A stretch of DNA of 43,582 nt from a virus (taxonomy: Duplodnaviria > Caudoviricetes), in the IMG/VR virus record IMGVR_UViG_3300037760_000034, positions 1 to 43,582 of that record, one strand, 5' to 3'. The notes below the pieces were generated by a model. It did not search any database. It saw only the letters and a program-made list of their open reading frames with translations, and had not been told where the DNA came from. Position numbers and translations under genes: made by a program. Each line of letters starts with the position of its first letter. Position 1 is the stretch's first letter. Shown one piece after another: positions 3,447 through 43,582 of this stretch.

Positions 3447-3464
3447 TCCACTGCTAGACGCACG

Positions 3465-3504
3465 AACGCCCCGGTGTCCGATACCCAGGACATCGGGGCG
3501 TTTT
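3465..3504. terminator. Intrinsic terminator between the two convergent arms
   Basis: AACGCCCCGGTGTCC / GGACATCGGGGCGTT inverted repeat (one wobble) followed by a T run, located between convergent genes. Confidence 0.8.
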
Positions 3505-6054: not shown

Positions 6055-6941
6055 TACGACAACACCTCGATCTGCGGGCTCCAGTACCTCACGCGCTCGC
6101 CCTCCTTCACCTTGTCGTAGATGTTCGGGGTGATGAACACGAGGGGGTTGCCGAGCACGACGGGCCGCATCATCCCTGCCTCGACGTACGATCCACGCGG
6201 CACCTTCCCGTTCTGCGTCCGCTCCATGTAGCCCTTCGAGAACCCGCCCGCGCCGACGAGGTGCATCGTGCGGTGGCGGAGGAAGTGCTGTTTCTTCCCC
6301 CAGTAGTATTCGACGCGGTCGATCTCGGCGTGGGCTTTCTTCGTCATGTGGCCCATCACCATCAGGTCGACGTGCCAGCTCGGGCTCACCTTCTCTAGCT
6401 TGTTCACCGGAGCTGCCGCCGTAGTCCCGCCTCCGCACCCGTGCGTGGCCCAGATGTCCACGTTGCACGAGGCGCTGCTGCCCTGGAAGTTCTCGACCTT
6501 CAGACCGATGCCAACCGTGGTCCCGAGGAACGCCGTCTTCAGCCAGCGCGCGAGATGCTGGTCCGTCGTCGTCCCGTCTTCGAGCTGCGTGAAGTGGTGC
6601 CCCTCCAGCAGCCCGTACCACCGACCGACCGTAGGCTTCAGCGCCTTCTCGAAGATCTCCTGCGTCAGCTCCATCGCCTTGTCGTCGATCACCATCTCCG
6701 TCGTGTCGTAGAAGCCCGCCCCCTTCCGCGCCTTGCGATTGCTCGGCGACATGAAGTCGATGTAGTCCCCCATCCCGAGAAACCACGCGTCGTGCTTCAG
6801 GCCCACGTCGATGCGCCGACGCAGCAGATCGAGCGACGTGCTGCCCTTGGGGCCAGCCCACTGGATGTCCCCGATGGGCATGATGGCGATGGGCTTCCCG
6901 TTCAGCTTCGATGCGTCCACCTTGTACTGGATCAGCTCCAT
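6054..6941 (-). CDS. Calcineurin-like metallophosphoesterase
   Basis: GDIQ, MGDYID, EGHH, THG, GHMT motifs in canonical order; TAATG coupling to the polymerase stop. Confidence 0.85.
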   Translation of the reverse strand: MELIQYKVDASKLNGKPIAIMPIGDIQWAGPKGSTSLDLLRRRIDVGLKHDAWFLGMGDYIDFMSPSNRKARKGAGFYDTTEMVIDDKAMELTQEIFEKALKPTVGRWYGLLEGHHFTQLEDGTTTDQHLARWLKTAFLGTTVGIGLKVENFQGSSASCNVDIWATHGCGGGTTAAAPVNKLEKVSPSWHVDLMVMGHMTKKAHAEIDRVEYYWGKKQHFLRHRTMHLVGAGGFSKGYMERTQNGKVPRGSYVEAGMMRPVVLGNPLVFITPNIYDKVKEGERVRYWSPQIEVLS

Positions 6942-8833
6942 TATGCGTCCCGCCTTTTCTTGACGGAGGCCGGGAAGAAGGCGTCGCGTCCGTTGATGGT
7001 GTAGTGGCGCTGCGCTACGTTGAGTGCCACCTGAGAGTACACGTCGTACAGCTCGGCCGGGAACGCCCACGTCTGCGCGTCGTACGCCCCCGTGATGAAG
7101 CGCGCCTCGGGCAGCAGCCGCTTGATCGTAAGGTAGGTCTGATTGTAGATCCCGGCGACGCCGCCTTGAAGCGGATGGTTGCTCGCTTCCCGGTAGCGCG
7201 CGTTCACGCCCTTGGCCGTGAGCCTGCGCGGCCTGCCGTCCCAGGTGTAGACGACGCCCGCCGTATCCACGTCGTGCTCGATGCTCTTCCAGAACTCCCG
7301 AATCCAGTGGTGCAGATCGAGGTAGCGGTTCACGGCGGCGGTCATGCGCGCACCGTCCATGCCCAGCGCCTTCGCACCAGGGATGTCGCCCATCCCGTCC
7401 GGGTTACCACGGTAGTGGGTACGGAAGATGGCGCGCTTGCTGAACGTGCGACGGATGTCATCCGCGCCCTGCCACTTCATCGCCTGCCGCCAGCTCGTGC
7501 AGTTGATGCAGTCGCAGGTGTGTACCGCCTTCGTCCGGTCGACCGGATGCGAGACGCCCATCAGGTCGCAGAGGTTCACGGTGTGCGTGTCCCAGTTGTC
7601 GGCCTTCGCCTTCAGGATCAGCTCGTCGCCCGCGAGGTAGCCGAGCAGCCACGTCTCGATGTTGGACCAGTCGAACTCGAAGAACGGCCAGCCGGGGTCG
7701 GGCCGGAAGAGGCGGCGGTTGTCGCCTTTGATCTGCGGCAGCGGCGGCTTCACGATGGAGTGCCGCCCGCTCGCCTGCGCGTGGATGCGCGTCTCCGGGT
7801 AGATCCGGTCGAGCACGCCCACCACGTTGTCCTTCTCCCAGATGAGGCACGGGTCCACGTAGTGGGAGCGCGCCTGCTGCGCCCCGTAGTACAGGTAGCG
7901 CGCTTCGAGCAGCGGGTTTCCACCCGCCTCGATGGCGGCGTCCGCCAGCTCCAGCGTGGGCTCCACCTCTTCGTCCCACTCGGTGCCGTGTAGCTTACGC
8001 AGCTCGGCGAGCGCATCCTTGTTCGTCGTCACCTTGGGGTCCGCGTCCCAGTCCTGATGCTTGGCCCACTGCGCCGGGAACTTCTCGACCGCGTAGAACG
8101 CGTGCGCGAGCTGGTCCGGCGACCCAAGGTTGATCGGGTATCCGAGGTACGCTTGGCCCAGCTTCAGCGCCTCGGCGCACTTGCGGTCGAACTTGTCCTT
8201 CAGCTCGTACGCTACCGCCCCGTCGACGGCAAGGCCACGCTCCTCGCCTTCGAGAATGTGTGGCAGCAGCGGCAGCGACTGCGTGCGATAGATACTCTCC
8301 GCCCTCGGGTCCGCAGGCCACAGCTCACGCTCGAACCGCTCGATGATCCGCATCGGGGCGACCAAGTCCATCGCGTTGTACAGCTCCGGGTGCGACTCGC
8401 TCAGATCCTTCCATTCCGGCATGCCGACGACGCGCACGCCGATGTCGCCCAGGTCGTGGTCTTCCTCGGCGAAGTAGGCCGCGTCCGCGAGCATGGTGTC
8501 GTCGAGCTGGCGGTGCATGCCCGGCGAGACGTTGAACCCGTGCATCCGCAGCACCCGAAGGTCCGCGATGGCGTTGTGGTACACGACGGGGATGTCCATC
8601 ATGTACTCGAAGAGGTGCAGCCGGGCCAGCTCGCGGTCCCCCTCGCTCAGCTCCTGCCACCAGAGCTGAAACACCTCGCGCTGGTTGCCGATGCCGATAC
8701 ACTTCAGGATCTCGGGGCGGTCCCGCTCCCACTCCAGGTCAATCGTCGCCCGGCCCAAGGCGAAGGGCGGAAGCTGGTTCCGATTGATCGGGGGGCAGAT
8801 CGCCCGCAGAGCCGCGATGCGTTCGTCGCTCAT
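6941..8833 (-). CDS. polA: DNA polymerase family A with 3'-5' exonuclease domain
   Basis: Exo motifs IDLEW, YHNAIAD, YNAMD; polymerase motifs ASGRHS, FDWSNIE (A), RTFSKRAIFRTHYRG (B), NHPLQG, divergent AYDA (C). Confidence 0.9.
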   Translation of the reverse strand: MSDERIAALRAICPPINRNQLPPFALGRATIDLEWERDRPEILKCIGIGNQREVFQLWWQELSEGDRELARLHLFEYMMDIPVVYHNAIADLRVLRMHGFNVSPGMHRQLDDTMLADAAYFAEEDHDLGDIGVRVVGMPEWKDLSESHPELYNAMDLVAPMRIIERFERELWPADPRAESIYRTQSLPLLPHILEGEERGLAVDGAVAYELKDKFDRKCAEALKLGQAYLGYPINLGSPDQLAHAFYAVEKFPAQWAKHQDWDADPKVTTNKDALAELRKLHGTEWDEEVEPTLELADAAIEAGGNPLLEARYLYYGAQQARSHYVDPCLIWEKDNVVGVLDRIYPETRIHAQASGRHSIVKPPLPQIKGDNRRLFRPDPGWPFFEFDWSNIETWLLGYLAGDELILKAKADNWDTHTVNLCDLMGVSHPVDRTKAVHTCDCINCTSWRQAMKWQGADDIRRTFSKRAIFRTHYRGNPDGMGDIPGAKALGMDGARMTAAVNRYLDLHHWIREFWKSIEHDVDTAGVVYTWDGRPRRLTAKGVNARYREASNHPLQGGVAGIYNQTYLTIKRLLPEARFITGAYDAQTWAFPAELYDVYSQVALNVAQRHYTINGRDAFFPASVKKRRDA

Positions 8834-8851
8834 CACTACTATACGCCGCGA
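8833..8851 (-). promoter_or_regulatory. Conserved 19-bp motif copy 1 (TCGCGGCGTATAGTAGTGA), candidate phage promoter
   Basis: 18/19 identical to the other two copies; abuts the polymerase start codon. Confidence 0.75.
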
Positions 8852-9515: not shown

Positions 9516-9616
9516 CACTTGGCCTCCCTCGGCTTGAAGGTCTTCTGCTTGCACCGCTGGCACGCGAGCTGGCTGGCGTGGTTGTGCGGGTAGTCGCAGG
9601 CCGCGCAGGTCTTCAC
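9515..9616 (-). CDS. Zinc-ribbon microprotein (33 aa)
   Basis: CAAC...CQRC; GTGA and TGATG overlaps with neighbours. Confidence 0.55.
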   Translation of the reverse strand: MKTCAACDYPHNHASQLACQRCKQKTFKPREAK

Positions 9617-10179
9617 TCGCCGCCTCCCTTGGGCTTCTCGTCGCCCTCGATGGTCACCTTGAAGGTGGCCTTGCTCGCGGTGTGGTAGACCACCACGCCC
9701 TCGGGATTCTCGAAGCCGGGCGCGGCGACTGATCCGCCCATCCGCAGATCCGCCAGGACATGGCCGATGGTGTGGCTGTCGAACGGTCCCTCGTACAGGA
9801 CAGGCACCACGCTGAAGAGCCCGTCGAGCGGCACCTGATAGCGGAACGGATTGAAGAGGGAGAAACGCTTGAACTCCTGATCGTAGCCGCGCTGAATGCC
9901 GCGCCCCCACCACTCACCGTAGTGGTAGCCAGGACCGAGCAGCTCGATCAGCTTCTGCGCGTGAAGGTATGCCCACGCGCCGAAGCCCATGTTGTCGCCG
10001 CGACCGGGCAGCACCCACCGGTTGCGACTCCCGACGTAGAGCGGGTCGGGGTACATCGTCGCCTCGATGGCGTCGGGGATGAAGAGCACCCCGTTGGTGC
10101 CGTCGATCTTCTCGGTGATGACGATGTCGCGGTTGAGCCGCGCGATCTTGGGGAATGGGATGAACCCAGGCATGTCCAT
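9613..10179 (-). CDS. RNA ligase family nucleotidyltransferase (Rnl2-like adenylyltransferase domain)
   Basis: FPKI, TEKIDGTNG (motif I), GSRNR, YGEW, FSLFN, EGVVV, FK motifs. Confidence 0.85.
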   Translation of the reverse strand: MDMPGFIPFPKIARLNRDIVITEKIDGTNGVLFIPDAIEATMYPDPLYVGSRNRWVLPGRGDNMGFGAWAYLHAQKLIELLGPGYHYGEWWGRGIQRGYDQEFKRFSLFNPFRYQVPLDGLFSVVPVLYEGPFDSHTIGHVLADLRMGGSVAAPGFENPEGVVVYHTASKATFKVTIEGDEKPKGGGE

Positions 10180-13041: not shown

Positions 13042-13257
13042 CTAGCTCCTGTCCCGCAGCACGTACGCTACGGTGCCCCGCGACACGTCGTCGCCCTTGA
13101 GGCGCATCGTCGCGATGAGGTGTCCATCTTCGCGCAGCTCGTGGATGCGCGCCGAGTAGCGATACCCGATGCGCTGGTTCAGCTCGTGGTTCGTCGCCAC
13201 GATGTCCCGCTTGAGCAGCGCCAGGAGCGCCGCCTTCTGCGACTCGCGCGCGGCCAC
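13042..13257 (-). CDS. Small winged helix-turn-helix protein
   Basis: SQKAALLALL...YRYSARIHELREDGHLI...VAYVL, typical of small phage HTH proteins. Confidence 0.7.
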   Translation of the reverse strand: MAARESQKAALLALLKRDIVATNHELNQRIGYRYSARIHELREDGHLIATMRLKGDDVSRGTVAYVLRDRS

Positions 13258-13808
13258 TAGAACGCTACCCCCTGCGCGATGAGCGTCTTCAGCATGCGGT
13301 CGGCCGGGTCGCCCTCCATGGACGCGATGGCGTCGGCGATGGCGTTGCCTGCCGCTGCGCCCTTGGCTTCGATCAGCTTCCCCTTCAGGTACTCGAAGGT
13401 GGGCTTGCTGCCCTGCTGCGGCGCCGGAGCCGCCTGCTGCTGGGGCTGCTGCTGCGGCGCCGGAGCCGCCTGCTGCGGCTGCTGCACCTGCCCGTCTTCC
13501 AGCCACGGCGTGGTCTCGAAGTTGTGGTACTCCTGCCCGGCCGAGCCGCGTTCCTTGCCGAGGTACAAGATGCGGACCCGCTGGCCGATCTTGATCTCGG
13601 CGAGCTGGCGCTCCAGCACCGTCTTCACGCCCACGGTCACCATCGTGCCGTCCATCTTGCGGATGTCGGCCAGCTTCCCCTCTTTGTACTGGCCCCTGGC
13701 CGGGGTCGTGCGGATGGCGACCAGCACACCGTCCACCTCCTGGCCGGTGGCCGTCCACTTCAGGATCGGTCCGCCCGCATTCCCTGCGATCTTCTGTCCC
13801 CAGCCCAT
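13257..13808 (-). CDS. ssb: Putative single-stranded DNA-binding protein (OB-fold with Q/P/A-rich linker)
   Basis: Beta-rich N-terminus with IGQRVRILYLG, low-complexity linker, first gene of the replication cluster, GGGAG RBS. Confidence 0.6.
   Translation of the reverse strand: MGWGQKIAGNAGGPILKWTATGQEVDGVLVAIRTTPARGQYKEGKLADIRKMDGTMVTVGVKTVLERQLAEIKIGQRVRILYLGKERGSAGQEYHNFETTPWLEDGQVQQPQQAAPAPQQQPQQQAAPAPQQGSKPTFEYLKGKLIEAKGAAAGNAIADAIASMEGDPADRMLKTLIAQGVAF
13413..13476. repeat. 28-bp exact direct repeat encoding QQAAPAPQQ twice
   Basis: CTGCTGCGGCGCCGGAGCCGCCTGCTGC at 13413-13440 and 13449-13476. Confidence 0.85.
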
Positions 13809-13900: not shown

Positions 13901-13919
13901 TCACTGCTATACGCCGCGA
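13901..13919 (-). promoter_or_regulatory. Conserved 19-bp motif copy 2 (TCGCGGCGTATAGCAGTGA), candidate phage promoter
   Basis: Intergenic, immediately downstream of a terminator and about 90 nt upstream of ssb. Confidence 0.8.
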
Positions 13920-13923
13920 AGGC

Positions 13924-13959
13924 AATAAAAAACCCCCGAGCCGTGTGGGCCTCGGGGGT
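13924..13959 (-). terminator. Intrinsic terminator ending the early operon
   Basis: Minus strand ACCCCCGAG-loop-CTCGGGGGT followed by TTTTTATT, 5 nt after the sigma-like gene stop. Confidence 0.9.
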
Positions 13960-13964
13960 CGGAA

Positions 13965-14291
13965 CTACTCAACATCTGGCCCGTACAGGGCGCGATCCAG
14001 GTCCAGCGCCGTACCCATAGGCGTCTCGCGCCGGGACCGTTCACCGTCCCGCTTCCGATTCTTCACCGCGCCGGGTCCGGCCAACGCATGACGCGCATAG
14101 TCCACTGCCCGCCGAATGAACATGGCCGGAGTGATGGCGCTCCGTTGCTCCAGGTTGGACAGGAACTCAACCGAGGCTTTCTGCACGGCGTCTTCTGCTA
14201 CGTCGCGCGCGCCTCCCACTGCGGCGGCAGCGACCGCCACCGCCTTCTCGTACTGCTCCGTGTAGAGCTGCTCGAACTCCTCGCGGATCAC
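13965..14291 (-). CDS. Sigma-70/ECF region-2-only protein (no region 4)
   Basis: EEFEQLY..QY....AVA...G..DVAEDAVQKA.VEFL...AMFIRRAVDYARH matches the ECF sigma-2 pattern; only about 35 residues follow, with no HTH. Confidence 0.75.
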   Translation of the reverse strand: MIREEFEQLYTEQYEKAVAVAAAAVGGARDVAEDAVQKASVEFLSNLEQRSAITPAMFIRRAVDYARHALAGPGAVKNRKRDGERSRRETPMGTALDLDRALYGPDVE

Positions 14292-14662
14292 GGCCTACCG
14301 TACCTTTCCGCCGCCTGCGCGACAGTGAGTGTTTGCGGGCGCAGCTCCGGGTGCGGGTCCGTGACGTGAACGCCACCGACCTTCAGGTGTTCATTCAGCT
14401 CGTGCGTCTCCGCGCCGAGCAAAAACACGCGCACCCATTCGATGACGCTGGCGCGGTCCATCCCCTCCAAGACGCCAGGGCCGATAGTCTGCTCGTTGAT
14501 GATCGGACCCACTTCGCGCGTCAATGGGTCGGGCTCATTGTGCGACGTGGTAAGCCGGACCATGCCAGGGTACCCGTAGTACGCGCCCTCCTCGGCATGC
14601 AGATCCCACCCCGGCTTGTAGGACATCGAATCCACCAGCTTGACGAAATCCGTTGGCTTCAT
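14288..14662 (-). CDS. Conserved-looking phage hypothetical protein
   Basis: SYKPGW and ETHELNEHLKVGG..VTDPH motifs; GGAGG RBS. Confidence 0.65.
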   Translation of the reverse strand: MKPTDFVKLVDSMSYKPGWDLHAEEGAYYGYPGMVRLTTSHNEPDPLTREVGPIINEQTIGPGVLEGMDRASVIEWVRVFLLGAETHELNEHLKVGGVHVTDPHPELRPQTLTVAQAAERYGRP

Positions 14663-14799
14663 GAGGGCACCTCCTCGTGGTCCTTGTCCCACTCTCGCGC
14701 GTCTCTCGCGCAGAGGTAGATGGGCGTTGGTTTGTCCTGCTCGTTGCGCGCAAGGCGCATCGTACACTTCCGTACCTCTCCGCACTCGTGGCACTTCAT
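14659..14799 (-). CDS. Cys-rich microprotein (46 aa)
   Basis: MKCHECGEVRKC...YLCARD; ATGA overlap. Confidence 0.55.
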   Translation of the reverse strand: MKCHECGEVRKCTMRLARNEQDKPTPIYLCARDAREWDKDHEEVPS

Positions 14800-14800
14800 G

Positions 14801-14911
14801 CTAGGCATCGCGGCCACCCGCGCGCCAGACGGCGAGCAGCCCCGCCAGGATCAGCAGAACCGCCGCCGTCATGCCCAGTGCTACCAGGATGCTGACGTAC
14901 ATCTCGGCCAT
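14801..14911 (-). CDS. Small membrane protein (36 aa)
   Basis: GAGGAG RBS, single hydrophobic helix. Confidence 0.6.
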   Translation of the reverse strand: MAEMYVSILVALGMTAAVLLILAGLLAVWRAGGRDA

Positions 14912-14921
14912 GGTGTTCTCC

Positions 14922-15113
14922 TCACGCCCTCGGCGGGCACAATAGGTCGACGTTCCCGTGCGGATAGATGCACGGCCCCCACTTGGGGATCTCCAGCACG
15001 CGCCCGTCGAGCCTGACGGCGGGCTGCGTTGCCTGCGGACGCGGGGCCACGGTCGAGCACGCGCTCAGCGCGAACCCTACTAGCAGCGCCCAGGCCAGAA
15101 GTCGCTTGTTCAT
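14922..15113 (-). CDS. Small lipoprotein
   Basis: MNKR + hydrophobic core + lipobox LSAC; GGAGG RBS. Confidence 0.7.
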   Translation of the reverse strand: MNKRLLAWALLVGFALSACSTVAPRPQATQPAVRLDGRVLEIPKWGPCIYPHGNVDLLCPPRA

Positions 15114-15174
15114 GGTTCGCCTCCAGGGGCGAGGGGCCGTCCGGCCCCATCCGCCCCGACTAAGGTGAGCTGCG

Positions 15175-15915
15175 CTACTTGTCGCCGAGCCCGAAGGCGC
15201 GGCCCAGGCCGGTCAGCACCCGGAACTGCGACGCGGGCGCGAGCGCCTTGACGGCGCGCGTGGCCGCATTGTGCAGCCCCCACGCCGTGCGCGGCGCGGA
15301 GTCTTCGTAGCCGAGGGTCTCGGCCTTGAAGTAGTTGGTCGCCGCCTCGTCGAAAATGCTGACAGGCAGCACGCCCTGGTAGCGCAGATCGAACAGCGCC
15401 ACCTTGGCTTCGTCATCGGTCAGGGGCCGGGCCTCAGCGTCCACGATGGACGCCTCGAACCGCGCGGCAGCTCCGAGCCACCGTTGCAGCCCCTCGCGCA
15501 GCAGCGCCCGCAGGTGCAGGCCACGACTGTGCTTGTGGAGTGCGACCTTCTCACCCGACAGGGCGAGGTTGTCGCAGACGAAGACGCGGGCACCGCCCAC
15601 GAGCTGGACGGCGAGCGCCTTGTCATTGGAGTGCCTGAAGCCCAGCGCCATGGCGCGCCCACGCGGGAGCCCGCCACCCTGCGACAGGTCGAGCGCGCCG
15701 AAGAGGGCGAGCCCGTTCTTGCTCACGGCGAGCTGCTCGCGCTCGATGCCCAGGTCGATGCGGCCCAGCTCCTCGCCGAGCGTCGACACCAGCTCGCCGT
15801 GGGGGATGGGTCGCCACGTGGAGCTGCCTACGGGCGTGGGGAATTGCGCGAGCTGCTCACGCGTCACGACGCGACTCTGCTTGCTGATGAGCTGCGCGGT
15901 CTCGATGCGGTTCAT
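15175..15915 (-). CDS. DUF932/DUF945 family protein
   Basis: WRPIPH, LGFRHSND, GARVFVCDNL, HKHS, RTAWGLHNAAT motifs. Confidence 0.8.
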   Translation of the reverse strand: MNRIETAQLISKQSRVVTREQLAQFPTPVGSSTWRPIPHGELVSTLGEELGRIDLGIEREQLAVSKNGLALFGALDLSQGGGLPRGRAMALGFRHSNDKALAVQLVGGARVFVCDNLALSGEKVALHKHSRGLHLRALLREGLQRWLGAAARFEASIVDAEARPLTDDEAKVALFDLRYQGVLPVSIFDEAATNYFKAETLGYEDSAPRTAWGLHNAATRAVKALAPASQFRVLTGLGRAFGLGDK

Positions 15916-15917
15916 GG

Positions 15918-16133
15918 TTAAGCCTCCCTCAGCTTGGGGAACAACCTGCGTAGGTCGCTCCACCGGTTTAGGACGGAGCGTCGGTCAGTGTACCCGGCGC
16001 TCGTGGCAGGCAGGGTGAAAACCTTGCCGTTTGGTAGACGCCACTGCTCATGCCCACCTTTCTGCCGCACCGGGGTCGCGCCCAGCCCCCGTAGGAGCTG
16101 GGCGAAGTCCCCGTACGACCGAGGCGCGTTCAC
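15918..16133 (-). CDS. hicA: HicA-like (dsRBD-fold) protein
   Basis: LLRGLGATPVRQKGGHEQW...VFTLP pattern with the conserved GxH; 71 aa. Confidence 0.7.
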   Translation of the reverse strand: MNAPRSYGDFAQLLRGLGATPVRQKGGHEQWRLPNGKVFTLPATSAGYTDRRSVLNRWSDLRRLFPKLREA

Positions 16134-16339
16134 GGGCGCACGCCCAGCTCACGCGTGAACGCCTCGTGATAGGCGTCCTGCAGCGCGCGCCGAGCGGCCC
16201 GGTCCAGGCGCACATCGCCGTAGACCGCCTCGTCATTGTTCTTTTCGATGTCGCGGTACTCGCCCAGCTCAGCCGCCTCCGCCGCCTCACGACCAGCGGC
16301 CTCGGCGTTCTTCAGCATGATGACTTCTAGGCTCCTCAT
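16130..16339 (-). CDS. Hypothetical early protein
   Basis: 69-aa ORF, GGAGG RBS, GTGA overlap. Confidence 0.6.
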   Translation of the reverse strand: MRSLEVIMLKNAEAAGREAAEAAELGEYRDIEKNNDEAVYGDVRLDRAARRALQDAYHEAFTRELGVRP

Positions 16340-16341
16340 GG

Positions 16342-16548
16342 CTATGCCTCCCCTCCCTCGTCTGGGGTGAAGTACCCCGCCAGCTCGGACCGTTCGTCGT
16401 TCCCCTGCAGGACGATGGCCGGATGCCAGTCGGGCAGGCTCGATGCGCGCACGGCGCCGATAGCGTCAAGCGCGCGCTGTTCCTCGTCCTGCGCGAGCTG
16501 CGCCTCCGCCTCTCGCTTGTCTACGGGACCGCCAAAGTAAGGGTTCAT
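16342..16548 (-). CDS. Hypothetical early protein
   Basis: 68-aa ORF, AGGAG RBS, ATGA overlap. Confidence 0.6.
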   Translation of the reverse strand: MNPYFGGPVDKREAEAQLAQDEEQRALDAIGAVRASSLPDWHPAIVLQGNDERSELAGYFTPDEGGEA

Positions 16549-16736
16549 GAACGGATCTCCTGTCCTACGCGCTGAATGTCAGCGGCCAGAGGTGAGCGGC
16601 TGAAGGGCATGCCGCAGTAGCGGCACCGATAGTGCGTCAACCATCCGAGACGGCCCAGAAAGGCCTCCGCCTCGTCCTGCTCCTGCCCGCAAGCGGGGCA
16701 GGTGACCAGCTCTACATCGTCGTGGTCGTGGTTCAT
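16545..16736 (-). CDS. Zinc-ribbon early protein
   Basis: CPAC...CRYC; AAAGGA RBS. Confidence 0.65.
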   Translation of the reverse strand: MNHDHDDVELVTCPACGQEQDEAEAFLGRLGWLTHYRCRYCGMPFSRSPLAADIQRVGQEIRS

Positions 16737-16740
16737 TGTG

Positions 16741-16890
16741 TCATCCTTTCTGGAAGCGATTGACGCGGGCGACAATCGCCGCGCGCTGCTCCATCGTCAT
16801 CGTATCATGCCCGCCCCCAGCCGGGTGCGCTGGGCATGTATCCCAGCGCTCCCGGACAGGGATGGTGCCGCCGCAGTACACGCACTTCAC
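16741..16890 (-). CDS. Cys/His microprotein (49 aa)
   Basis: GTG start, CVYC...CPAH...H; fills the gap. Confidence 0.5.
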   Translation of the reverse strand: MKCVYCGGTIPVRERWDTCPAHPAGGGHDTMTMEQRAAIVARVNRFQKG

Positions 16891-16892
16891 GA

Positions 16893-17285
16893 CTACACTC
16901 CATGCGTGCGCGAGCGCCACTCGCAGGCGATCTCGCTGTTTTCGATGCCGGACACCGCCACCCGGATATAGCTAGGCCGCGCGCCGTACACCGAGCACTG
17001 CTTGCGGAAGTCGTCGCACGCCCGGCTGGCGATCTCCTCGCAGGAGCGGAACGTCCGCACCCGACTGTACGTCTTCACGAAGTAAGCCGGAATGTCATTG
17101 TTGTCGACGAGCCACCCCTGCGGGCAGTCGATCTCCCGCCCGATGATGGTCACGTCGTAGGTGAGCTGCTTCTCACCGTGGTAGCCACACTGCGCCTTGC
17201 TGTTGCCGCTCCATTCCACCGTGAAAGCGCCGGAGCGCCGGATGGTGAGCGTCTTGTCCTGGTCTCTCTGTCGGTCCAGTCTCAT
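16893..17285 (-). CDS. Degenerate QueD/6-pyruvoyl-tetrahydropterin synthase-like (T-fold) protein
   Basis: Order of C..HG, YDVTI.G, GWLVD, SCEEIA, IRVAV mirrors QueD C..HGH, GMVVD, PTAENIA; several catalytic residues absent. Confidence 0.5.
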   Translation of the reverse strand: MRLDRQRDQDKTLTIRRSGAFTVEWSGNSKAQCGYHGEKQLTYDVTIIGREIDCPQGWLVDNNDIPAYFVKTYSRVRTFRSCEEIASRACDDFRKQCSVYGARPSYIRVAVSGIENSEIACEWRSRTHGV

Positions 17286-17467
17286 GATGCGGCCTCCAGC
17301 CCGCCCTCAAGGCGGGCCGTCGTGGGGTTGAAGGGGGCCGTCTTCACGTGGAAGACGTGGCCGGGGAAGAAGTAGCCGTGGCAGATGGGGCAAAAGTGTG
17401 TCGCCCCGATGCTCTGGAGGTACTGCGCGAATGACAGGGTCTTTCGCGGCTTGCGCGTCGTCTTCAT
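17282..17467 (-). CDS. First early gene, small Cys/His protein
   Basis: GAGGAG RBS; HFCPICH...H..H. Confidence 0.65.
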   Translation of the reverse strand: MKTTRKPRKTLSFAQYLQSIGATHFCPICHGYFFPGHVFHVKTAPFNPTTARLEGGLEAAS

Positions 17468-17807: not shown

Positions 17808-18018
17808 GACGCAGCGCTCAACAGGGCCTAAACGCCTGCCATTGCTGGCCGAAAGGGCTGGATTCGTACCTGAATATTTTCGTCGCAGTGAGTCATAGCC
17901 AACTACATGAGATCATTGAGCTAAATTATTTTCGGTCGTCAGCCGTTGAGTATTTCAGCCAGTTTCAGCGCAGGCCGCGACCAGGGCGCGCGCCGCCCCG
18001 ATACGATTGTGGGGTGGC

Positions 18019-18037
18019 TCGCGGCGTATAGGAGTGA
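18019..18037 (+). promoter_or_regulatory. Conserved 19-bp motif copy 3 (TCGCGGCGTATAGGAGTGA), candidate late promoter
   Basis: Non-coding, oriented toward terS and the whole plus-strand arm. Confidence 0.8.
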
Positions 18038-19165: not shown

Positions 19166-19645
19166 ATGGAGATGCAGATGGCCCGCTGGAACGACGACGA
19201 GCAGGACGAGAAGGTGGAGCGTGTGATGGAGTGCCCGTCCCCCGACTTCGAGGGGATGGCGAAGCTGGTGGAGCAGATCTTCAAGATCCCGCAGGTGCCC
19301 GGTCCCAAGGGCGACGCGGGTGAGAAGGGCGAGAAGGGCGACAAGGGCGATCCCGGTGAGAAGGGCGAGAAGGGCGATGCCGGGATCAACGGCGTCGACG
19401 GACTCCCCGGCACCAACGGCACGAACGGTGCCGATGGCATCAACGGCACGAACGGCACCAACGGCGCGGACAGCGTCGTGCCCGGTCCCAAGGGCGATGC
19501 CGGAGAGAAGGGCGACAAGGGCGACGCTGGCGAGGATGGCGTGGACGGGGTGGACGGCGAGGATGCCGACCCGGCCGTGACGGATGCGCTGCGGGCCGAG
19601 CTGGACGCTCTCGTGGCGCGGGTGACCGCGCTGGAGCAGGCGTAG
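19166..19645 (+). CDS. Collagen-like protein with C-terminal coiled coil
   Basis: Long Gly-X-Y runs (GEKGDK, GTNGTN), ending in LRAELDALVARVTALE. Confidence 0.85.
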   Translation: MEMQMARWNDDEQDEKVERVMECPSPDFEGMAKLVEQIFKIPQVPGPKGDAGEKGEKGDKGDPGEKGEKGDAGINGVDGLPGTNGTNGADGINGTNGTNGADSVVPGPKGDAGEKGDKGDAGEDGVDGVDGEDADPAVTDALRAELDALVARVTALEQA

Positions 19646-38943: not shown

Positions 38944-38950
38944 GAGAGCA

Positions 38951-41900
38951 ATGAACGCAGAGAAGGATCTGCTGAAGGCGTACCAGTCCGAGGACGACGA
39001 CCAATTGATGCAGTGGCTGATGCAGGAATCAGCCATAAAGCAGGAGGCGAAGCCGCCGAAGGCGAGCGAAGCCCCCAAGGTCGAGCCCGTGAAGCCGGTG
39101 GGATTCTTCAACACCATGGGCCAGGGTGTCGGCGGTGCGCTCACGTCCGCAGGCGGAGCTGTGCGCGGCGCACTCGGCGGCGAGGTGCCCGCACCGGGCG
39201 CGCCTATGTCCGATCAGCAGGGGCCGATGGGACCAGACACGCCGGAGCAGCGTGGGAAGCCAGGCGTTGGCCCGTCCATCGGCCGCGCGTTCGGCTCGTT
39301 CCTGGAGAGCGCGGGCGAGGGCTTCACCGAGGCGTCCACGCCGGGCGAGGAAGGCCCCGGCTTGCTGGAGCTGCCGGGAGGCGCCAGCGTCCCCGTACCA
39401 GAGTCCCTGATGCGCTTCCCCAGGCGCGCTATCGGTGCCGCCCAGGCGCTCTTCTCGTGGGCCAAGATCCCGGCCGGGCTCGCGGGCGACGCGATGGAGG
39501 CGGCTTCTGCGGCCAGCAATACCGATGCGGTCATCGACGAGCGCATCCGCCAGCTCGAAGCGCTGCCCGAGAGCACGCGTGAGACGAGCAACGCGGGGCA
39601 GCTCGCCTTTCTTCGCCGCTGGCGGATGATGCCGTACGACGAGCGCCAGAGGGTCGAAAACGAGAGCATGGCATTCGCGGTCGAGATCCTGTCCGGCGTC
39701 ACGCCAGGCTACACGCTGGCGGCGCGCGGCGGGAAGGCACTGCTCACCGCTCCGGCGAAAGCAGCCTCGGAAGCGGCCATCGCCGCGCGTGCGAACGTCA
39801 TCAAGGCGGCGGGCGAGAGTATCTCGATCCGCGAGGCGGAGAAGGCGACCCGCAAGGCCGAGGCAGCGGCGAAGCCCGTCGAGGAAGGCGGACCCCGTGG
39901 CCCGCTCACCCTGGCCGATCTGCGCCACGGGATGCAGCCGGAGAGCACCCCAGGCGTCAAGGCTGGCCCCAGCGCCCCCGGCTCTATCCCCGAGAACATG
40001 ATGACGTTGGAGAAGCTGAACGCCCAGCAGAAGCTGGCTATGCTCCGTGCGGAGCCCGGCGTTCAGCAGGCCATCGACGAAGTCATCCCCGACCCCCGCA
40101 CCATGGCCCGCCCTGGCGTGGGACGCACGGCCGAAGCAGCGGACTCTCGTGAGGCGCTGCGCGCCAGCGGGCGGACCCCTATCGGAGGCGACCTTCCCAG
40201 CTCCGGTGCGCCCGCGCGCCGGGCTGTAGGCGACGACCAGCTCGAAGAGATCGCGCGCGCGACCAACGAGGGCGGGGCGTCTTTCTCGCTTGACGAGGGG
40301 CGGTTGCGCCTGTCGGACGAAGGTGGGTACTACGTCGGCGGGCAGGCTGGCACCGTTCAGATCAAGGGTCGTCAGGTCACCGCCGCCGACATCGCGGACT
40401 TCGCGAAGGCGAACGAAGCGGAGCTGGCGAAGCCGGGCGCGCATATCGGCGCGGAGAAGCTGCCGGACGGCACCGTGAACCTGGACGTGAGCGTCCGGCT
40501 GGACGACGAGGCGTCCGCGTTCGGCATGGGACGCGCGCTGAAGCAGGAGCGGATCTGGGACGCATCGGGGAACAAGGCGCTCGACGTACCGCCCGAAACC
40601 TCCGTCACCGGCCACCCGTACACGAGCCCCTCCGAGCCGCTCGACGACCAGGCAATCAAGATGGCGCAGGAGTACGACGCCGCCGTGACCGACCCTGCGG
40701 CGAAGCCCGCTTGGGACGCCCTCGCGCGCGAGACGGACCGCATGTTCGATGAGATCGCGAAGAAGGTCAAGGTCGAGCGCGTCACCGGCCAGCCGTACGC
40801 TACGGCCGACGAGATGCTGGAAGACATCAAGCGTGGGAACTTCAAGGTCACGACCGACAACAGCGAGCACCCCTTCTGGTCCGTCGACGAGAACTGGAAG
40901 TTCCGCGTCGTTCACGACTACCTCGGCCACTTCGACGGGAAGGTCGACTTCTCTCTGAAGGGCGAGAAGGACGCGTACCTCCACCACGCCAAGCACCTGA
41001 CGGACCCTGCCGCGAAGGACGCCCTCCAGCTCGAAGTCTACGGACAGGCGGCGGCGAACGTCGCGCACGGCGGCGTCTTCCAGCCGCAGAAGGCGTACAT
41101 CACGAAGCAGCCGTTCGGGGAGATCAAAGACCCCAGCATCACGGCGTACCACGGGACGGCGTCGCAGTTCGACTCGTACAAGACGGGTGCAGAGACGCGC
41201 GACGGTGGCACGTGGTTCTCCGCCGACCCCGAGACGGCGGGTGCGCGCGCCATGGGCGAGGCCGGTGAGATCGCGGGTGACGCGCCGCAGGTGCGCCCCG
41301 TCGTCCTCCGCATGCAGAACATTGCCACCGAGGAGGAGTTCCGCGCCGCACGCATACTAATGCAGGGCGACACGCCGATGGCGTCCGAGCTGTTGAAGTC
41401 GAAGGGTTACGACGGCGTGGTCTTCAACCGCCCAGAGATCGGCCCGACGCCCAACTACCTCGTCTTCGACGCCAACAAGTCGGCCAACCCGCTGTACGGC
41501 TCCGTGGGGCAACCGCTGGAGACGGCTCTCCAAGCGGCCGAGCGCCGCATGGCGGAGCGGCTCGCCGCGATCAAGAGCACGCTCACAGGCGAAGCGGGCG
41601 CGGTGGATCTGCGCGGATCGTTCGCCGAAGGCTGGGAAAAGAACAAGATGCTGTGGAACGACCTGGTCACCATCGGCGCCGGTCGCCTGTGGGAGATGCA
41701 GTCGGTCATGGCGAACAAGTACCAGCAGTGGTCGGCGAAGATGCTCGCGGCGTACGGTGATCTCATCAAGCCCCAGCTCCCGCGCATCTTCGAGCAGTCG
41801 CAGAAGCGCTTCGACGACATCCTTGCGAAGGTTGAGCGGAAGATGGGGAAAGAGCTGCCTGCACTGTCGCAAGTCCTGGAGCTGTACCACCGGGGCGAGG

Positions 41901-43582
41901 CGGGGCTGTCCTGGTACGACGAAGCCTGGCCGCAGATCCAGCGGCTGTTCGGCAAGCACGCCGAGCTGTACGTGGACGTGCTCTCGGCGACTTCGCCCAA
42001 CACGGGGGTGAAGTCGAACGTCACCAAAGCGAACGAAGCCATGGCGCTCATCCTGTCGGGCAAGCGCAGCTTGAAGAAGCCGTTCAAGGCGACGATCACC
42101 GACGACGCTGGGAACGTCGTGAAGAAAGGCGACGGGCTACAGGCGCACACCGACAACCTGAACCGCATTCTGAAGGGTCAGCCCCTCAGCGGTCCCAAGG
42201 TCGGCCCCTTCTCGCGCGCACTCAAGAACGACCGCGACGCCGTCGTCGTGGACACCTGGATGAAGCGCGCGTTCGGCTTCGACGACGCCGCAAAGGACGG
42301 CGACATCACCTTCATCCAGCAGGCGGTGACCGGCATGGCCGAGGCGTTGGGCAAGGACGCGCGGCAGGTGCAGGCCGCGATCTGGACCGGCGCGAAGATC
42401 GTGGCCGAAGGCCCTGGCACCTTCGTCGAGGACATTCACAAGACCATCGGGCGCGCGCTCACGGACGCGGAGTCCCCACTCCACAAGATGTTCGGGCAGG
42501 AGCTGGCGCTGGCGCAGAAGAAGCTGGGCGAGGAGGGCTTCACCCGCCTCGGCACCATCGTCGTAGCGGCACGCACCGCGCTGTTCGCGGCAGTGGGCGC
42601 AGCGACGGGTGACGACGCCGAGTCCCGTGCGCGCAACATGCTCATCGCGGCCGGGCTCGGGCTCGTGGCCTCGCCGAAGCTGGCAAAGCAGATCGTCGAC
42701 CGGATGAACGACCCCGAAGTCCGCACCATGCTCAAGGATCTGATGAAAGACGAGACGGGCGCGCTCTTCCCGAAGCCGAAGCGGAAGCCGCTCGTGGTGA
42801 ACCAGGGCAACACCGGGGGCTCGAACGAAGCCCGTGCCCTGATCCGTGGCGTCAACCGCGCCCTGGAGAAGGCGCGGATGCTGGAGCGCTCGCGCGTCGT
42901 CTCCCACGAAGAGACGATCCTGGCCGCATCCCTGTCCGGGAAGTTCCGCACCGTCGAAGACGTGCTCGCTCTCGACCACACCGCCATGACGCTGAACGAA
43001 CTGGCGGCGGCGAAGGTCAACGTGAAGGCGGTGCGCGACGTGGTCACCACTGACATCATCGAGACCGCCGCGCGCGCGAAGATGCTGGACGACGAGGGCC
43101 TGATGTCCGAAGCCGTCGACAAGACGTTCCTCCTGGCGAAGGTGAACCAGAAGTGGGCAGACATGGAGACGGCGGGAGGGCGCTTCGTCGAGGCCAGCAA
43201 GATCAAGTCCCCCGCCTCGCTGGCGTCGAAGTACGACCTGGACGAGTTCGCGGGCGACATCCAGCAGATGCGCGATGCGTTGCTTGCGCGCGGGAAGGTG
43301 ACCGACCGCCAGCTCGTGGAAATGCTGACCGAGTTCGCCGACAAGGCTGCGGCGTTGAAGGTCGCCGACGTAGCGTCCCGCTGGCCCGAGGCCCTGTGGA
43401 ACATCTACTACGGCCTCAACCTCCTCGGCTCCCCCATCACGCACGCACGCAACACGCTCGGCAACATCGGCGGGCTGGGTATGGCGGTCACCGACCGTGC
43501 ATTCGGCGAGATCATCGCGCTCCCGTTCCACGCAGCGGGGAAGGGCCAGAACATGGTCCAGCCCGGCGAGACGTGGGAGCTG
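38951..43582 (+). CDS. Giant multi-domain internal virion (ejection) protein, N-terminal 1544 codons; continues at 1..1797
   Basis: AGGAG RBS, ATG at 38951; missing from the ORF track, consistent with no in-frame stop before the window end; contains ART, HDxxGH, HhH-glycosylase-like and SAM-lyase-like segments. Confidence 0.85.
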   Translation, partial: MNAEKDLLKAYQSEDDDQLMQWLMQESAIKQEAKPPKASEAPKVEPVKPVGFFNTMGQGVGGALTSAGGAVRGALGGEVPAPGAPMSDQQGPMGPDTPEQRGKPGVGPSIGRAFGSFLESAGEGFTEASTPGEEGPGLLELPGGASVPVPESLMRFPRRAIGAAQALFSWAKIPAGLAGDAMEAASAASNTDAVIDERIRQLEALPESTRETSNAGQLAFLRRWRMMPYDERQRVENESMAFAVEILSGVTPGYTLAARGGKALLTAPAKAASEAAIAARANVIKAAGESISIREAEKATRKAEAAAKPVEEGGPRGPLTLADLRHGMQPESTPGVKAGPSAPGSIPENMMTLEKLNAQQKLAMLRAEPGVQQAIDEVIPDPRTMARPGVGRTAEAADSREALRASGRTPIGGDLPSSGAPARRAVGDDQLEEIARATNEGGASFSLDEGRLRLSDEGGYYVGGQAGTVQIKGRQVTAADIADFAKANEAELAKPGAHIGAEKLPDGTVNLDVSVRLDDEASAFGMGRALKQERIWDASGNKALDVPPETSVTGHPYTSPSEPLDDQAIKMAQEYDAAVTDPAAKPAWDALARETDRMFDEIAKKVKVERVTGQPYATADEMLEDIKRGNFKVTTDNSEHPFWSVDENWKFRVVHDYLGHFDGKVDFSLKGEKDAYLHHAKHLTDPAAKDALQLEVYGQAAANVAHGGVFQPQKAYITKQPFGEIKDPSITAYHGTASQFDSYKTGAETRDGGTWFSADPETAGARAMGEAGEIAGDAPQVRPVVLRMQNIATEEEFRAARILMQGDTPMASELLKSKGYDGVVFNRPEIGPTPNYLVFDANKSANPLYGSVGQPLETALQAAERRMAERLAAIKSTLTGEAGAVDLRGSFAEGWEKNKMLWNDLVTIGAGRLWEMQSVMANKYQQWSAKMLAAYGDLIKPQLPRIFEQSQKRFDDILAKVERKMGKELPALSQVLELYHRGEAGLSWYDEAWPQIQRLFGKHAELYVDVLSATSPNTGVKSNVTKANEAMALILSGKRSLKKPFKATITDDAGNVVKKGDGLQAHTDNLNRILKGQPLSGPKVGPFSRALKNDRDAVVVDTWMKRAFGFDDAAKDGDITFIQQAVTGMAEALGKDARQVQAAIWTGAKIVAEGPGTFVEDIHKTIGRALTDAESPLHKMFGQELALAQKKLGEEGFTRLGTIVVAARTALFAAVGAATGDDAESRARNMLIAAGLGLVASPKLAKQIVDRMNDPEVRTMLKDLMKDETGALFPKPKRKPLVVNQGNTGGSNEARALIRGVNRALEKARMLERSRVVSHEETILAASLSGKFRTVEDVLALDHTAMTLNELAAAKVNVKAVRDVVTTDIIETAARAKMLDDEGLMSEAVDKTFLLAKVNQKWADMETAGGRFVEASKIKSPASLASKYDLDEFAGDIQQMRDALLARGKVTDRQLVEMLTEFADKAAALKVADVASRWPEALWNIYYGLNLLGSPITHARNTLGNIGGLGMAVTDRAFGEIIALPFHAAGKGQNMVQPGETWEL

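Follow-up and report, generated by a model that had tools for sequence, protein, structure and literature searches.

The podovirus phiEco32 encodes no RNA polymerase of its own and is known to switch sigma factors (PMC12276001). In bacteriophage T4, gp55 places a σ2 homology domain on the clamp helices, reads a −10-like element only and supports basal transcription with core polymerase alone (PMC7892883); the T4-type factor has been called a minimal sigma (PMC7824862). Phage proteins that contain only region 2 have also been described. Bacillus phage HSE3 Gp01 is one (PMC7826278), and such proteins are reported to be common in a preprint that, in the part available to us, gives no promoter, regulon or function for them (bioRxiv 10.64898/2026.10.08.757525). 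Our literature search, which was incomplete in coverage, found no paper tying a σ2-only protein to a promoter. Here we analyze the 43,582-nt genome of a tailed virus (IMGVR_UViG_3300037760_000034, our record G000; the whole stretch is termed the window), which encodes a 108-residue σ2-only protein followed by a copy of a repeated 19-bp motif, TCGCGGCGTATAGNAGTGA. Sequence comparisons suggest that this protein, acting on the host core polymerase, probably drives middle and late transcription.

The 108-residue protein and its gene slot

The gene (13965..14291, minus strand) starts with a GTG that overlaps the stop codon of the upstream gene. Its product consists of a region 2 of the extracytoplasmic function (ECF) type (residues ~1–75), a σ3.2-like linker and a short C-terminal helix (residues 95–103); the chain stops ~30 residues past region 2, without a region 4. 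The original prediction saw a clear ECF σ2 pattern in this protein. The residues it quoted are there, and region 2 is recovered by the family profile and the fold, but the pattern is not clear in the single sequence. On its own, the sequence matches no Pfam or PHROG family, PF04542 stays below threshold, and NCBIfam yields only weak ECF matches far below cut-off (TIGR02985, E 4e-4; TIGR02983, E 5.7e-4). The homologues P0003 and P0004, 50% and 44% identical, exceed the Pfam cut-off for PF04542, which is matched by 31 of the 47 short homologues, and the family profile of the 108-residue protein matches SigK with an E value of 9.5e-5. The three-helix fold of region 2 is present and resembles region 2 of Escherichia coli σE, and the D-x-x-Q of region 2.2 is retained. 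Family profile and fold thus identify the protein as an ECF-type sigma region 2 plus linker.

The helix-turn-helix of region 4 is missing, as had been proposed. PF08281 has no match in the window genome, with all 14 control genomes positive; neither PF08281 nor PF04545 was found in the 108-residue protein or in its short homologues, and region 4 is absent from all five phage genomes checked (the window genome and four others). Most homologues (47 of 59) have no more than 133 residues, none of these with a σ4 match, which makes the short form a conserved family, not a lone truncation. Nor is it an assembly error, since the gene is covered by contigs from the public runs X1 (0 differences in 5.5 kb) and X3 (6 differences in 2.8 kb); X1 is possibly the window's own sample.

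Relatives picked by portal were mostly sigma-less or fragmentary records. Selection by the family A DNA polymerase (family match; 6941..8833, minus strand, 630 residues) gave six phages at 36–46% identity (G001 and G012–G016). Each carries a sigma-like gene in the same slot, between small early open reading frames (ORFs) and replication genes; the gene therefore travels with the replication module, that of the polymerase. Four of the six encode σ2-only forms of 102, 105, 99 and 113 residues (in G001, G012, G013 and G016). The slot of G014 holds a 225-residue form with a Cys-rich tail, that of G015 a 172-residue full-length form whose alignment with TIGR02937 extends to position 143 of 165, and that of G004, a virion relative, a divergent 187-residue form. 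Forms with and without region 4 share one gene slot, and we infer that the direction of change was loss of region 4.

Two further features of the slot were recorded. A Cys-rich, zinc-ribbon-like tail replaces region 4 behind σ2 both in G014 (L177:10235-10912) and in protein P0038, and the two can be aligned over the tail. Shortly upstream of the sigma gene, G004 (L137:12606-12782), G012 (L173:1535-1720), G014 (L177:10001-10159) and G016 (L183:8898-9053) have an ORF of 51–61 residues with a β-hairpin-like pattern. This ORF matches no family, was not seen in the window, is reminiscent of DUF2292 and may encode a helper.

The 19-bp motif and cognate words in relatives

The motif occurs in three exact copies in the window and in none of 100 shuffles, even when up to three mismatches are allowed; no fourth copy was found in the window at four mismatches. 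Copy 1 (13901..13919, minus strand), a putative middle promoter, lies where it had been described, 7–8 nt after the T-run of a terminator, and faces the genes for a single-strand-binding-like protein, a winged-helix protein, an exonuclease and a primase-helicase. Within copy 2 (8833..8851, minus strand) lies the stop codon of the upstream gene; the DNA polymerase ATG begins on the last A of this copy, so that a leaderless message is predicted. There is no Shine-Dalgarno sequence ahead of this ATG. DNA polymerase homologues at 83% and 70% identity start at the Met on copy 2, and four more distant ones have a few extra residues. Copy 3 (18019..18037, plus strand), a putative late promoter, heads the packaging, virion and lysis operon. 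All copies are strand-specific, non-palindromic and point into operons, and none lies upstream of the sigma gene. A motif with −10-only anatomy leads both the replication and the late operons, in support of the original prediction.

No conserved −35 box precedes the three copies; only 3 of 50 upstream columns are identical. If the last A of the motif is +1, CGTA occupies positions −12 to −9 and the GC-rich TCGCGG positions −18 to −13, and a conserved discriminator follows. CGTA at this position resembles ECF −10 boxes. The anatomy is of the −10-only type, and the promoter role is putative. The housekeeping sigma is an unlikely reader because the single variable base of the motif sits where σ70 needs a conserved T. 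No consensus σ70 promoter passed the scan of the window; relaxed candidates (8/12) lie near 17900.

In eight genomes, we then searched the coding strands of two regions for shared words, one being the sigma gene with 400 nt added and the other the initial 1500 nt of the late arm, with random windows as background. The plain longest-word test was partly significant (random-window counts: G000, 38/400; G001, 88/400; G012, 13/400; G013, 0/400; G016, 109/400; G014, 10/400; G004, 400/400; G015, 132/400). When bases were weighted by rarity, the better random windows among 150 numbered 0 for G000, G013 and G014, 2 for G012, 4 for G001, 5 for G016, 69 for G015 and 122 for G004. The two that surpassed the match in G012 contain a true third copy of its word just behind its DNA polymerase; the four in G001 reflect another real repeat or chance. 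The G016 word is weak, as its opposite-strand control scored above the real match. The words of G000, G001, G012 and G016 were known before the test regions were set, and those of G013 (26/27 nt) and G014 (16/17 nt) emerged from the test itself.

The words, each found in its own genome only, are CCCCTGTATGTA in G001, GCCGGGGTCTATCA in G012, CCGGAGTTATAT in G016, TCAGTATCTCTAG in G014 and a 27-mer in G013. By these tests, a single-block word stands at both matching places in all five σ2-only genomes and in one of the three genomes with longer forms. Related phages co-inherit the gene and a cognate repeated motif: the sigma-like gene is present in 6/6 DNA-polymerase relatives and the words in 5/5 σ2-only genomes. 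On sequence grounds, these words are candidate promoters, now available in six genomes.

The intrinsic terminator between the sigma gene and copy 1 (13927..13960, minus strand; hairpin 13960-13931, then T6) closes the early small-ORF cluster. Its hairpin begins 4–6 nt past the sigma stop codon and folds with −22 kcal/mol (z −3.16; 1 of 200 shuffles equally good), so the proposed strong terminator is real. A stock terminator scan overlooked it; it was found by hairpin folding against shuffles, and is one of just two strong hairpin-plus-T sites in the genome scan. The other (3461..3504, plus strand) closes the late operon, downstream of the lysis genes. A T-run terminator behind the sigma gene exists in only one of eight genomes, that of the window, and in G012, G014 and G016 the first word copy lies inside the sigma gene. 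The terminator is therefore a local feature of the window genome.

Other repeats were noticed in the relatives. Behind the DNA polymerase of G013 (L175:2399-2989, minus strand), a ~60-nt segment with the polymerase stop codon and ACGTTATAATGCAT is duplicated 590 nt apart. G001 has a ~100-nt hairpin-rich element twice, directly behind the sigma gene (L130:13987-14090, plus strand) and ahead of a late gene (L130:8340-8240, minus strand). It lies on the coding strand both times and is possibly a structured RNA or processing site. The complete virion relative G002 (L133:10970-16015) has no detectable sigma, carries GTCCCAAGCCC five times in its early region, encodes a 583-residue ORF of no known family and may use a different transcription switch.

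Candidate mechanism and alternatives

In the mechanism that we favor, the phage minimal sigma would be the descendant of an ECF sigma that lost its region 4. The host holoenzyme would transcribe the small early genes, including the sigma gene, and halt at the terminator. Region 2 of the protein would bind the β′ clamp helices of the host core polymerase, and the repeated word would be read as a long −10-only promoter, with CGTA as the −10 box and TCGCGG as an extended −10 that, together with the conserved discriminator, would compensate for the absent −35. Copies 1 and 2 would drive the replication genes and copy 3 the late operon. We infer the host origin of the early transcript, as well as core binding, motif reading by the sigma protein, start sites and timing; a helper may or may not be needed. 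A bolder version, to which we give slightly less than an even chance, holds that a σ2-plus-linker protein of ~100 residues constitutes, on its own, a full sequence-specific initiation factor that reads a 12–27 bp single-block promoter with neither region 4 nor a co-activator, and that protein and promoter co-diverged into orthogonal pairs within the clade, with full-length and domain-swapped forms sharing the slot. Independence of the σ2 protein from any helper is a similarly tentative proposition, a little more doubtful than not.

The protein could instead occupy the core polymerase as a mimic and thereby shut off host transcription, or be a vestige, with the word serving another regulator that works with a host sigma. 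The melting residues of σ2 have diverged, the link between protein and motif is indirect, G002 combines a five-copy word of its own with no detectable sigma, and a winged-helix protein is encoded nearby, all of which would suit a mimic. We nevertheless consider this unlikely, since the words are strand-specific and non-palindromic, face into operons, in the window end exactly on a start codon and differ between phages in parallel with the sigma; the winged-helix protein is missing from three of the five genomes that have the gene and the motif. The same protein (PF14090, HTH_39; 13042..13257, minus strand) had been nominated as a partner in a split sigma of the SigO-RsoA type; in such a pair, it would supply region 4 and a −35 contact, and the 108-residue protein region 2. 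Split sigmas exist (PMC7826278), and this small helix-turn-helix gene lies two genes downstream of the sigma gene. Several findings make a split sigma highly improbable here: the protein is a winged helix with no σ4 match, there is no conserved −35, the gene sits behind the promoter that it would serve, and it occurs in only two of the five genomes tested (G012 and G013 being ~80% complete), all three that lack it having the σ2-only gene and motif, so the two are not co-inherited. We regard it as very unlikely that the word serves replication, recombination or packaging and has nothing to do with the adjacent sigma gene. Two of three copies do border replication genes, and one is placed in the divergent gap, a possible site of genome ends or origins in such phages, but all three are oriented along transcription, one finishes at a start codon, and relatives have different words at the same two positions.

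Promoter recognition by the σ2-only protein itself would matter because a sigma factor is generally considered to need at least σ2 and σ4, and the −10-only phage sigmas studied so far carry extra domains or need helpers. Five σ2-only proteins, each paired with a candidate cognate promoter, together with a predicted start site make the sufficiency of σ2 simply testable. If true, it would define the smallest sigma and offer small orthogonal sigma-promoter pairs.

Genomic setting and comparison with known systems

The 43.6-kb window is a phage genome that is both complete and circularly permuted, because a near-identical contig (G007) spans both ends; it bridges them with a 3-nt gap at the junction, and the window lacks those 3 nt. 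The gene for a large internal virion protein is divided over the ends (38946-43582 and 1-1797). Replication and small early genes occupy the minus strand from about 17467 to 3527. The plus strand carries the genes for packaging, virion and lysis, which start at about 18900 and continue across the ends to 3446. The small-ORF cluster upstream of the sigma gene (14288..17467, minus strand), with no motif copy upstream of it, is presumed early from the layout. The first gene behind copy 1 (13257..13808, minus strand) has no family match and appears by eye to be single-strand-binding-like. An RNA-ligase-like gene (9613-10179) lies in the replication arm, a HicA-like gene (15918-16133) among the early genes and a collagen-repeat gene (19166-19645) among the late ones. 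A tyrosine integrase-like ORF was seen by eye in G004 (L138:7212-8102) and none in the window. At least half of the region's words are present in four public runs, every one a sediment metagenome. The sole host hint, a weak one, is a 41.9-kb relative (L163, G016:C27) that was assigned to the bin of an Acidobacteriota metagenome-assembled genome.

The virion module is BPP-1/HTVC010P/VP2-like, and the best cultured matches of the portal are a Pelagibacter phage (41%) and VP2/phiVC8-type Vibrio phages (33–34%). A T7-type RNA polymerase is absent from the window, as originally stated (no PF00940 match; T7 control positive at 1e-109). Its absence is not surprising, since BPP-1 has no polymerase among 53 annotated features and podoviruses such as the Zobellviridae combine T7-like virions and divergent arms with no polymerase (PMC9960094); CVT22 encodes a sigma (PMC4505115). 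The view that the sigma stands in place of a T7-type enzyme is thus an analogy, as nothing shows a replacement. The locus resembles the T7 cascade in logic, with a last early gene, an early terminator and middle and late genes behind putative long promoters of the −10 region, but shares no homology with it and belongs to a BPP-1-like virion lineage without that polymerase.

Like the putative switch described here, phiEco32 uses host σ70 for early genes, one phage sigma, gp36, for both the middle and late classes, a single-element consensus near −11.5 and divergent early and late arms (PMC12276001). In contrast, gp36 has 214 residues, including a σ4-like C-terminal domain (residues 138–214) that sits on the flap and touches the −35 region, and gp79 is the activator of gp36 (PMC12276001). 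The window protein is half that size, lacks the C-terminal domain and is paired with a 19-bp motif. With T4 gp55 it shares a σ2 domain and, putatively, a −10-like element only; unlike it, gp55 has an extra helix-loop-helix and a clamp-binding tail, and gp33 and gp45 act as its activators (PMC7892883). Scans of 62 and 48 ORFs revealed neither gp33 nor a sliding clamp, with small ORFs without matches remaining. Among the listed PHROG, PDB-sequence and fold results there is no match to gp55, and the top matches are all ECF. These results point to an ECF ancestry of the protein. It resembles the canonical (group 4) ECF factors SigK, SigE and SigW in the sequence and fold of region 2, in its linker and in an ECF-like CGTA −10 box, and differs from them by the lack of region 4, of a −35 element and of any anti-sigma neighbor that could be seen. 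B. subtilis SigO-RsoA also includes a small stand-alone polypeptide with part of a sigma (PMC7826278, PMC10141391), whereas no region-4 partner was found in the window genome or in four other phage genomes. By the features tested, the window protein is neither of the gp36 type nor a canonical ECF factor, and it is probably not of the gp55 type either. Its domain architecture is that of the catalogued σ2-only proteins, to which this analysis adds candidate cognate promoters in six genomes.
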